A DNA stretch of 64,000 nucleotides, from positions 35,714,001-35,778,000 of the forward strand of contig NC_087436.1 of NCBI RefSeq assembly GCF_036321535.1. The letters run 5' to 3'. Made by a program: the position numbers and the translations under genes. This DNA comes from Camelus dromedarius (taxonomy: Eukaryota). Below the pieces are notes generated by a model, which did not search any database, was not told where the DNA came from, and was given only the letters and a program-made list of their open reading frames with translations. Below are positions 3,866 through 28,884 of the stretch, one piece after another (the stretch's first letter is position 1; the number at the start of each line of letters is the position of its first letter).

Positions 3866-5019
3866 CAGTTGACCCTTGAACAACGTGGGGGTTAGGGGCA
3901 CTGACCTGACCCACTCAATCGAAAATTCAGGTATGGTTTTTGACTCCCCCAAAACTTAACTACTACAAGCCTACTATTGACCAGAAGCCTCACCAATAAC
4001 ATAGCCGATTAACACATATTTTGTATGTTATATGTATTATATTCTGTCCTTTTACAATAAAGTAAGCTAGAAAAAAGAAAATGTCATTAAGAAAGTCATA
4101 AGGAAAAGAAAATACATTTGTCATACTGTACTGTATTTATTGATATGGTAAGTTTACCTCGTGTTTACGAGATGAATCAATCTGTTAGTACCTACATCAA
4201 TATTTCTCATATGATAAAACACTGCAGATGTTACATGTGTTACTAACACTAGACATCAAAAATGAAAAGATAATATGAAAAAGAAATTCATATTTATTTA
4301 CAGGTAAAATGATTCCTGCATTGATAATGAAGAAGTAATCAATATGATTGCCTAGTGTAACTGATACAAATGCTTCATGGTAGCCTAGCCTATATGCTAA
4401 TGAATAAATTATTATAAAATTTTTATGGCATACAATATTTCAGTCAAATTTATCATACAGTATTGGAAATAAGGCAGGAGGGTATAGCTCAAGTGGTAGA
4501 GTGCATACTTAGCGTGTACAAGTTCCTGGGTTCGATCCCCAGTACCACCTCTAAAAATAAATAAACCCAATTACGTACACCCCTCTGCCAAAATAAAATA
4601 ATTAAAAAAAAAAATCTCAGATCACAGTATTGGAAAGTGTTACATTTTTTAAAAAAAACCACTTACCTGTGATGATAGGCTGATACACAGTTTCTCCAAT
4701 TACAAGAGAGAGACAAGCATACCATATTGTAATTCTTCGAAAGCAAAGTTAAAAGAAAACTAACACATTATTAATTTCATATTATATACCACTCACCTGT
4801 GCCTATGTAAGGATAGACTAGTATCTACATGTATCTTATGCATTCATGACATGTCTAACTTTTTCTTAATTTTTTTGATATTTCTAGGCTACACAGTTCA
4901 TCTGTGAGTTTTTTCTACTGTCATAAATCTCAAAAAATTTTTCCAACATATTTATCGAAAAAAATCCATGTATATCTGTACTCACGTAGTTCAAACCCAT
5001 GTTGTTCAAGGGTCGGCTG
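3866..5019 (-). mobile_element. Tigger2-family non-autonomous DNA transposon (TcMar-Tigger), ~1 kb plus nested SINE
   Basis: Terminal inverted repeats 'cagttgacccttgaacaac' (from 3866) and 'gttgttcaagggtcggctg' (to 5019), with TA duplications at 3864-3865 and 5020-5021. The flanking L1 rejoins as 'aattagaaaata|cttagaactgaa'. Confidence 0.9.
4474..4614 (+). mobile_element. tRNA-derived SINE (camelid vic-1 type), nested in Tigger2
   Basis: A-box 'tagctcaagtggtagag', B-box 'gggttcgatcccc' and A-rich tail. The direct repeat 'acagtattggaaa' occurs at 4457-4469 and 4624-4636. Confidence 0.9.
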
Positions 5020-25800: not shown

Positions 25801-27676
25801 TGGTGACTCCTTGTGAAATGGATTACATTTTTATATTTCTCTCTTGGGTTTTGGTATATTTAAGGAGGAGTGTCATATTATCCTTCAGGAAGATTATTCT
25901 TGTGGTGGCACGCAGGATGGATTGGGTGGAGATGGGAGGCTGCAATCAAGGAAATTAGTTACTAACCTACCCCAGGGTCAAGATATAAGACGATGAGGGA
26001 AGAATCAAGATGCACTTGCTGGAGAGCTGCCTCCTCAACTGGACTTGGCAGCACAGTACAAAATGAAAGATAAAATGCATTTGTGTTACAAGCTTGGAGA
26101 ACACCATTAAGGCTTTATTTCACAAGAAAAAAAAAGGGGAAATGAGCAGGATTTGGAGAAAAACTAGTGAGAACATTAATATGGTTCACTTGGGGATTTG
26201 GTGGTGAATGTGTTATCAAGTAGAACTCTTGATCCTGAACTTTATAGTTTCAGCAGTGTCTCAGTGTGAACCCAGCCTTCTCTCTCATGGTTAGCTTTAA
26301 AACAAATGCAGTATAATGGCAAATTACATATTTAAATTTGGTTAGGATCCAACAAGAAATTCTTTCATTTCTTCTTGTGATGGGAAATTATAATTCAAAC
26401 CAAGCTCTGGTAAAAGGAGCTGATTTTTATAAAACATTGTCTTTAAATGATAATAAGCCTGAAGATAACAATCCTTTTACCATTCAAATCGTCTATATTC
26501 CTTGAGTACTGAATTCAGCTCTACTAAGCATAATTATTCAAAATTCAACTTTGGTAAACAGGCAAAGCAAACCCAGTCACTATGGTAATTTGGACTTCCT
26601 TGGTTGTATTTCCCACAGTTCCTTCATGTTAATAACTTTTTCCCTACAGGTGAAATGTCAGTGACACTGGTTTTAGCATCCTGTATTTGCAAAGTTGATT
26701 TTTATCAGAGCCTCTGTCTGATCAGTTAAAAAGTTCAAGGATATGTTTTAACCCTGATATTTGGAGCAGTGAAATGCAGTGTTCCTGCACGTTTTTTCTT
26801 TCCCTCTTTTCAGGTTTGCTGATTTTCATGTTTATTTTCTCATGGTTTCAAAACTTACTCTACCAAATTCCCAAGCCTGGAGCTGTTTTCTGCCACTGCA
26901 GCCACTGAAGCATAGCATTGTTTTGTTTGCCATCCAGAACATCCTCCAGTTCCACGCAGAGGGGAAGAAGAGGAGAAGAAAGGGGGAGCAGGTGCAGAAG
27001 TTCTATTCACAAGGGCACTGACCCTCAGCAGGGGCGTGACAGGGCTTTAAAATAGGATTAGACACCCAAACAAGAAAAAGGTCACACTTGACATTTCCAC
27101 TGGAAATACCAATGCAAATAGAGCTGATCTTAGGAACATTTTTCACACACACACTCACACACACGCACACACACTCAATTTTAGATAGGTTCAAGAGAAA
27201 AATGATGCATTTTAATGAATTATTTTCCTAATAGCGCAAAAAAAAAAAAAAAACAACTATCGGAAACAGGGCTCAATGATAACAGTAAATATGAATCAAA
27301 AAGCTCCCTTGAAAATTTTTTTCTCTTTTACTCACTTGTCTCTGAGGGTTTGTTCTTTACCTTATCATGGGAAGAAAACTAAGAATGGAGTTGATGGGGG
27401 AAATGACATAATGATTCGGAAACTTTGATTATGTTGTAGTCAGACTCATTTAATTCATTAAAAAAAATTTAGTCCCTAATCATATCAACCCCATTTCTAC
27501 CTGCACATTGTCTCATTTGACTTCTGTATAGCTGATAATAGATTAATAGTTATTCCTGTCTATTTTCCACTTGTATATTCAAAAGTAGCTGGCCAAAGCA
27601 TTCAATACCAAAGTAAAATCTGGAAGCACCTAGAGGAGGAAATCTAAAGCTGCATCAAGATCCACCAACATCACCG

Positions 27677-27746
27677 TCCTCATTAGTATAGTGGTGAGTA
27701 TCCCTGCCTGTCTCAGGAGACCAGGGTTTGATTCCCTGACTGGGAG
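27677..27746 (+). pseudogene. tRNA-Asp(GTC) pseudogene / retrocopy
   Basis: 'tcctcattagtatagtggtgagtatccctgcctgtctcaggagaccagggtttgattccctgactgggag' aligns to canonical vertebrate tRNA-Asp-GTC. Essentially every CpG is mutated, there is a 2-nt deletion in the anticodon stem, and no 3' CCA is present. Confidence 0.92.
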
Positions 27747-27762
27747 GCAACACTCCCCTTGA

Positions 27763-27907
27763 GAGGGAGGGTATAGCTCAGTGGTAGAGTGCATGCCTAG
27801 CATGCATGAAGTTCTGGGTTCAATCACAGCACATTAAAATACATACATACATACATACATACATACACACCTAATTACCCCCTCCCCCCAAAAATTAAAA
27901 AAAAAAA
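27763..27907 (+). mobile_element. tRNA-derived SINE (vic-1 type) fused downstream of the tRNA-Asp copy
   Basis: 'gggagggtatagctcagtggtagagtgcatgcctagcatgcatgaagttctgggttcaatc', then (ACAT)n, 'cctaattaccccctccccc' and poly-A. Confidence 0.92.
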
Positions 27908-28884
27908 TCCACCAATACCTTCTGAAGATCTCCAAATCATTCACCAAAAAGCAAATGGTCCATTGAACTCATAGCGTTATTCTGAGAAGGATTCATGTAA
28001 TTTCTAGCCTCAAAAATGTGTGCATTTGTTGGTGCAACTGAAAGCAAAAGCAGAAAAAAGCAGAAGAAAGCAACCCTCCCATGGGAAAAGGTATGAGTCC
28101 ATTAAGTTACTTGGAATTACAAAAATAAATTCAAGGACTCTCATAAATACCTAAGTTAGCTCCTAGGGACCCCACATCTCAACCTGAGACAGCTTCCATA
28201 AACTGAAGCAGCACACAAAAAGTCTGGCTGAATTTCACCCGGAACATGCCTTACCACGTTCTCATCTCACAAGTTGAGTGTAATCACCTAAATTGCTCCT
28301 TTCTTCTTAAAGAACCTGTCATTGAGGAAAATATTCTTTACTGAAGATCAGCTTTAAGGTCACAGTTGTGATCAAGATTTTTTTAAACCACATATGATAT
28401 TCAGAAGTGTGGATATCAACTATAATGGAGACCATGAAGAAAGTAAGAAATAGACTTTAGTTTAAGCTGAATTTTGGAAAGCCTCTTCTTTGCTGCAATT
28501 GGGATTTACCAGTCAAGAGAAAGAAATTGTGTAAATTACCTTTAAAAATATTCTAACGGTAATATCTAATTTTACCTTTGGAAGTTTGCCAAAATAATCT
28601 CACTTAAGTACTTATATGGCTGTTACCACTGGGATCAATTAAGTGTTTAGCTGAAGATGCAGTATTAAGCTGAAACGTGACTTGGGAACTCTTGATGATC
28701 ATATTATACAAAGCAGTTAAAGCAAAAATTCATAATTACAAGGGTATAATTTATTTTTCTTTACTAAAGAGCTATAGGTCTTGATGAAGATATGTAAAAT
28801 GTGTCTTGGGAGGAAAAGGGAGACTAGAAAAAAAGAGATCAGACCACTTATTCGCAGCTCTTAGATTACATGGAAAGGGAAGAG

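Follow-up and report, generated by a model that had tools for sequence, protein, structure and literature searches.

Chimeras in which a small RNA and L1 or Alu share one target-site duplication (TSD) form an established group, with U6/Alu and U6atac/Alu as its rare members (PMC4476161). According to the available text of that paper, its Group IV chimeras (U6/L1, U6/Alu, U6atac/Alu) contain a complete Pol III RNA that ends at its U-tail and is fused to the 5' side of a retroelement with matching orientation; one TSD encloses both parts and the chimera does not propagate. tRNAs take part in such events as well. Law and Burns report 21 human tRNA/L1 chimeras within one TSD, most of them built from tRNA halves; 16 of the 21 are antisense (twin priming) and 5 are sense (PMC11838501; PMC13174262, supplementary file 3; available portions). 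Pre-tRNA retropseudogenes have also been noted (PMC4476161), and in the tailless kind (Schmitz 2004, as described in the accessible text of PMC5322556 and PMC4476161) L1 copies a pre-tRNA together with its leader, the copies being 3'-truncated, primed directly on the target and free of a tail. Finally, the dimeric or complex SINEs Tu, GarnAlu, B1-dID and Bov-tA have gained a tRNA module 5' of a SINE (PMC4494074, PMC7245038, PMC3531059), and template switching has been proposed as one origin of RNA-gene heads on SINEs (PMC4494074, PMC7245038, in the parts available). For small-RNA chimeras the origin, template switching versus RNA ligation, is debated.

Here we describe a composite insertion of Camelus dromedarius in which a tRNA-Asp copy stands directly in front of a SINE. 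The window, by which we mean the whole stretch analyzed, comprises 64,000 nt (C1:35714001-35778000) of the 2.3-Gb assembly, and positions within the element are window coordinates. An earlier sequence-only reading had listed the parts of the insertion with their positions, and all of them were found in the sequence as listed. With the donor assignment described below, the element reads as follows:

27657..27670, forward strand, 5' copy of the TSD; exact core 27660-27668; its final 2 nt may be leader that decayed at CpG
27671..27676, forward strand, pre-tRNA 5' leader of 4-8 nt with an uncertain border; it agrees with the leader of the donor at 5/8, and of the three differences two are CpG to CpA
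27677..27746, forward strand, tRNA-Asp(GTC) copy of 70 nt; no CCA, a 2-nt deletion in the anticodon arm, no CpG at all, B-box C changed to T, A box intact
27747..27760, forward strand, 3' trailer of the donor gene at 12/14 identity; stops two T's into the T5 terminator of the donor
27761..27838, forward strand, vic-1-type SINE head; 5'-complete, starting with gaga (a short purine extension as in standalone copies), with a small deletion near its 3' end
27839..27906, forward strand, SINE tail; a (TACA)n repeat, a conserved cctaattac/C-run motif and an A-rich end that runs into the 3' TSD
27904..27917, forward strand, 3' copy of the TSD; exact core 27907-27915

Both modules scored above the gathering cut-off in cmscan (27677-27746 as tRNA with 32.1 bits, the SINE head at 27767-27837 with 34.8 bits), and ARAGORN called neither of them. 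Two descriptions needed refinement. The tRNA-Asp copy had been termed full-length; both of its ends are indeed present, but the 2-nt deletion leaves it at 70 nt only. What had been taken for a 16-nt spacer is free of T4 as claimed, but really consists of 14 nt of donor trailer followed by the first SINE bases (gaga, 27761-27764). Between the tRNA-Asp copy and the SINE core, which begins at 27765, lie 18 nt. The lack of CCA and the two sets of A/B boxes had been recognized correctly, and together with the A-tail and the lack of an internal T4 these boxes give the element the anatomy of a dimeric SINE. The SINE has the same orientation as the tRNA-Asp copy and its 5' end directly abuts the TT of the trailer. 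Inspection of this junction revealed no A-run, no duplication or TSD and no microhomology.

A genome search with the tRNA module gave 36 matches, 25 of which reach into the flanks and belong to a tandem array on C23 with a period of ~8.3 kb. This array (C23:11.09-11.30 Mb, L002-L026) holds 25 tRNA-Asp units, 24 on one strand and the last one inverted, and in the fetched units ARAGORN called genes for Leu(CAG), Asp(GTC), Gly(TCC) and Glu(CTC). This gene set is also that of the human 1q23.3 tRNA repeat, which is unstable in copy number and has non-tRNA sequence that is not conserved to mouse (PMC4041453, available text); the camel array looks like its counterpart. The trailer in the window matched the tRNA-Asp trailer of the array at 12/14 positions, versus 3-7/14 for the nine other tRNA-Asp loci compared, and among the 127,972 14-mers of the window a single one reached 12/14 to the donor trailer, namely the copy's own trailer. 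As evidence for the donor, the leader match would be weak when taken alone (5/8 for the array gene, 4/8 for three other loci). By this comparison we assign the copy to the tRNA-Asp gene of the 25-unit array. The donor trailer enters five T's; the copy retains two of them and then ends. As the copy starts a few nucleotides upstream of +1 and stops inside T5, the 5' module is a copy of the terminated primary transcript. The idea that an unprocessed pre-tRNA-Asp had been copied thus gains a source, with leader and trailer both traced to the array gene.

The sequence-only reading had also suggested a search for an intact tRNA-Asp gene that shares leader and trailer with the copy and adjoins a SINE. 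The gene was found in the array, but the SINE was not: all 25 units are identical around tRNA-Asp, each has an intact T5 terminator, and none of the 25 carries a SINE at the tRNA-Asp terminator. Because the donor lacks a SINE, the product would have been formed by joining a terminated pre-tRNA to a full-length SINE and not by read-through. Of the two origins that had been considered, read-through from a SINE-bearing source locus therefore loses ground, given the intact terminators and a trailer that ends inside the terminator, and template switching is now the best supported. Read-through from a source that has since been lost would nevertheless yield the same product. In that case the terminator of one array unit would have harbored a SINE, and turnover would later have purged this unit; an array as homogeneous as this one, whose human counterpart varies in copy number, could well lose a variant unit. 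Yet the assembly contains neither such a unit nor such a locus, the GC-rich donor trailer offers no sense-strand endonuclease site when judged by the L1 consensus, and from an active source one would expect more than a single copy. We consider a lost source highly improbable.

Both modules sit inside one TSD. The flanking repeats match at 12 of 14 positions, nine of which form an exact run (atccaccaa), and the border between TSD and leader is uncertain by 2-4 nt. We scored TSDs with a strict test in which the 3' copy had to start at the end of the A-tail and to show at least 4 non-A matches. An equal score was obtained for 2 of 4000 random window flanks, and for 48 of 2977 in a laxer test that admitted matches within the A-run. 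For the SINE alone the strict test found no TSD (score 1), and the sole match of a wider search was a 6-mer of the SINE's own tail motif. The single TSD around both modules, with none belonging to the SINE, which the sequence-only reading had proposed, was thereby borne out. The L1 endonuclease has the target consensus TT|AAAA, that is TT followed by an A-run; the insertion site reads TC|AAGA, two changes from it. From this one decayed TSD (9 exact, 12/14) we infer that the tRNA-Asp and SINE modules were inserted together, with L1 as the presumable enzyme.

The TSD also bears on the idea that array DNA was captured by or duplicated to a site beside a pre-existing SINE. The array would have been a 25-copy source of identical DNA for such an event. 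However, the copied stretch has transcript ends on both sides and brings along no GC-rich array flank, and one TSD surrounds both modules; the GC content is 33-38% in the flanks of the insertion, of which the 5' one is single-copy, and 75-78% at the array. We give this scenario next to no weight.

The 3' module has a tRNA-like head and a tail and occurs in many dispersed copies, as expected of a simple SINE. Its exact 42-nt head is common to 127 places, one of which is the present locus, and its tail motif is common to other fetched copies. In line with the sequence-only reading, we take the module to be of the vic-1 type and of tRNA-Ala origin. G or A was found just before the core in all 34 SINE copies fetched. 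A scorable TSD was present in 18 of these 34 standalone copies, and in 12 of the 18 the TSD and the head core are separated by 2-4 nt, which are nearly all purines; the other 16 copies have no scorable TSD. The 4-nt gaga at our locus fits this purine extension, so the SINE is probably 5'-complete. vic-1 is entered in SINEBase as a simple SINE found in camels (PMC3531059), and the available text of the camelid TE survey PMC8605555 holds nothing on vic-1. Among other copies, those at window positions 4478 (+) and 11539 (-) have a common 5' extension, taaggc, before the head and may represent a longer-leader subfamily. Five further places, C11:72846498, C22:1911252, C35:6652527, C86:1282898 and C98:3175800, have one SINE 5' junction in common, which suggests segmental duplication, and L113 and L120 are another duplicate pair of this kind.

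We compared the decay of the two modules. All nine CpGs of the donor tRNA and trailer were lost in the copy, in which 10 of 84 aligned bases differ from the donor, 9 of them at CpG; the 2-nt deletion, of ambiguous placement, comes in addition. In the SINE head, 8 of 54 positions deviate from the sample consensus; for 27 other copies the mean is 11.7%, and CpG masking was poor in the SINE alignment. Judged from these few sites, the modules seem to be about equally decayed and not separable in age. The B-box C is important for the promoter B box. Neither the cloverleaf nor the B box nor the terminator of a functional tRNA-Asp gene is preserved, given the 2-nt deletion, the C to T change in the B box and the lack of an ARAGORN call, and the first T4+ run downstream of the element lies at 28378. 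The element is old and probably silent. Folding z-scores (-0.52 for the tRNA-Asp copy, 0.28 for the donor) were uninformative.

Could the two modules have arrived one after the other? A polyadenylated pre-tRNA retrocopy would have come first, and the SINE would have landed later at the trailer TT and the A-run behind it, with a TSD of its own that either did not form or was lost. A TT ahead of an A-run corresponds to the L1 target consensus, and the camel genome holds an A-tailed, 3'-truncated tRNA-Asp copy (L065; C15:40979963) in which positions 1-65 are followed by an A-run, with no clear TSD. As a scorable TSD is missing in 16 of 34 standalone SINEs, the lack of a SINE-only TSD is no proof of co-insertion. 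Moreover, poly(A)-tailed small-RNA retrocopies exist, and a U6atac/Alu pair without TSD was read as two events by Doucet et al. (PMC4476161, available text). What speaks against nesting is the junction itself: no A follows the TT, the 4 nt up to the SINE core are all explained by the usual SINE 5' purines, and a duplicated A-run or a target of ~10-15 nt would have had to disappear cleanly. Full-length trans-mobilised copies were not associated with short TSDs in Kojima 2010, a survey whose available text indicates that TSDs of <5 bp were not collected (PMC2912911). The similar decay of both modules also argues against two separate dates. Altogether we regard nested insertion as unlikely.

The nature of the joined ends is informative with regard to ligation. 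A 3'-OH and a 5'-triphosphate are the ends expected on primary Pol III transcripts. RtcB is the tRNA-splicing ligase, which makes it a plausible agent for joining a trimmed pre-tRNA that ends in a 2',3'-cyclic phosphate to a 5'-OH SINE RNA; retrotransposition of the ligated RNA would then have followed. Such a ligation has been demonstrated for U6/L1 (PMC6789731, available text) and gives the same sense-sense geometry without homology. The two of five T's that were kept could reflect trimming, and since the SINE 5' purine run varies, a loss of 1-2 nt is possible. On the other hand, the SINE looks 5'-complete, unlike the variably 5'-truncated L1 joined to U6; a 3'-OH or a 5'-triphosphate sharply lowers joining by RtcB (PMC6789731), and the 3' end of a nascent pre-tRNA is a La-bound oligo-U (PMC10498592), as far as the available texts describe it. 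Both joined ends of the camel element appear, as far as sequence can reveal chemical ends, to be unprocessed Pol III ends, which this published chemistry disfavours. Ligation before insertion is thus a rather unlikely origin, one that we rate slightly below nested insertion.

We favor, with a probability of about 0.6, a single L1-driven TPRT event that included a template jump from the 5' end of the SINE RNA to the U-tail of the pre-tRNA. Having nicked the target, L1 ORF2p would have used the poly(A) of a vic-1-type SINE RNA for priming and copied this RNA to its 5' end. The enzyme would then have continued on a nascent, terminated pre-tRNA-Asp from the C23 array, entering this RNA at the oligo-U 3' end and copying it through the 5' leader, after which the insertion was closed with one TSD. 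The order of parts is the one expected from TPRT if the enzyme starts on the SINE poly(A) and continues on the pre-tRNA 3' end. Human ORF2p indeed jumps to a new template in vitro and makes concatemers (PMC10830420, available text). With only two terminator T's kept, the new locus would at first have been a dimer with a tRNA head, two promoters and no terminator inside, which then left no detectable daughter copies and decayed.

We searched the genome for sister chimeras. The donor, used as query, gave 35 scored matches, and the array trailer occurred outside the array region only at the window copy; the query also reached one diverged gene beside the array, with an alignment that enters the flank by a few bases. 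When up to 3 mismatches were allowed, the junction pattern matched at 98 places, and the single exact match was the locus itself. No tRNA-Asp lay upstream in the 29 fetched of the 97 non-self matches, and none of the 97 coincides with a tRNA-Asp match of either genome search. Likewise, a tRNA was found upstream in 0 of the 34 nearest SINE copies fetched out of the 127 with the exact 42-nt head, and four loci that matched the trailer pattern with 2 mismatches (L057-L060) contain no tRNA-Asp. The DNA search misses diverged copies (L065 was found with the tRNA module and not with the donor query), so these counts are lower bounds.

These numbers bear on the suggestion that the element belongs to a multi-copy dimeric tRNA-Asp/vic-1 SINE subfamily. 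Its two A/B-box sets, its A-tail and the absence of an internal T4 would suit such a subfamily. In the searches, however, the junction and the trailer outside the array region were confined to one locus, with tRNA-Asp upstream in 0/29 junction matches and tRNA in 0/34 head matches. SINEBase defines a family by at least 100 interspersed copies (PMC3531059), and one copy was found here; that a family of this size was missed by our searches is very unlikely. A subfamily accordingly has almost nothing in its favor, and the fallback of the sequence-only reading, a one-off chimera, agrees with the single copy. The stretch is also present in sequencing data: 20 of 24 listed runs (12 studies, two organism labels) hold 0.94-0.95 of its words, a measure of presence only in a list that ranks holders first.

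The search for further chimeras covered three other donors, namely U6 and the tRNA-Gly and tRNA-Leu of the array. A pattern of the U6 3' end followed by the SINE head had no match in the genome, in which 48 U6 copies are listed. The Gly trailer followed by the SINE gave 3 weak matches, with a tRNA in 0/3, and the Leu trailer followed by the SINE gave 6 matches, all at 3 mismatches. The route to such chimeras is therefore rare, as judged from one case.

How does the camel element relate to the systems described above? It is a direct same-sense fusion within one TSD, has no TSD for its 3' part, and has a 5' part that stops where the donor RNA itself terminates; all three features are those of Group IV. 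It behaves as a chimera of the U6/Alu type would and does not belong to a dimeric SINE family. Unlike in Group IV, the 5' partner is an unprocessed pre-tRNA and not an snRNA, the 3' partner is a 5'-complete tRNA-derived SINE and not a truncated L1, and an internal tRNA promoter was carried along. The chimeras of Law and Burns differ in that their partner is L1, and the available text discusses no donor gene, leader or trailer. One of their human rows (chr6:162,787,885-162,789,069; PMC13174262) joins a full-length sense tRNA-Glu 1-72 to L1MC1; gaps of about 8 and 11 nt lie upstream and downstream of the tRNA, respectively, and the 11-bp TSD is listed one row off. Going by the coordinates, it is likely a pre-tRNA/L1 chimera whose gaps could be leader and trailer. 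In contrast to the tailless tRNA retropseudogenes, the camel copy has its full 3' end and trailer, followed by the SINE, which provides the A-tail. Tu, GarnAlu, B1-dID and Bov-tA are amplified families, whereas the camel element is one decayed copy. The chimera class is known from U6/L1, U6atac/Alu and tRNA/L1. In the literature we found no complete pre-tRNA joined to a SINE, and the available text of PMC11260458 contains nothing on pre-tRNA/SINE chimeras; Buzdin 2003, Schmitz 2004, Garcia-Perez 2007 and Kramerov and Vassetzky 2011 may already list a tRNA/SINE case.

The locus itself is minor, being one decayed pseudogene, and its value is mechanistic. This one copy illustrates how a tRNA head is gained and a terminator lost, the step proposed for the origin of dimeric SINEs. 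We tentatively suggest, well short of even odds, that it is a fossil of this birth step with a named donor, in which an end-to-end jump linked the 5'-triphosphate end of the SINE to the U-OH end of the pre-tRNA, a join that RtcB should not make. The element might then belong to an overlooked, rare mammalian class of chimeras between terminated pre-tRNAs and retroelements. If this is true, the class could decide between template-switch and ligation models and supply two-promoter seeds for new SINE families. Donor-specific trailers used as queries are a cheap route to further cases.

Other genes of the array have left copies as well. Its tRNA-Gly had 152 candidate matches, of which 40 were scored; 8 of the 40 are 5' halves with a start 5-8 nt into the leader. 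The three fetched all stop within the anticodon loop and lie between TSD-like flanks, which are exact over 15-16 nt in two cases. These three (L132, L133 and L134, on C9, C8 and C10) are tailless pre-tRNA-Gly(TCC) retropseudogenes with a leader of ~5-7 nt. Their structure indicates that the array also supplies other pre-tRNA templates to L1-type insertion in this genome. A candidate Glu pre-tRNA copy at C3:115363133 was rejected as it is an intact gene with its own T-run. Within the array, a partial unit near 11,294,000 contains an intact Glu gene and an 88% Gly gene, and the unit around L018:2286 has a single-base change beside the tRNA-Gly(TCC) anticodon. The tRNA-Glu(CTC) at L002:2720-2780 has no four-T run in the next 60 nt and may use a non-canonical or distant terminator.
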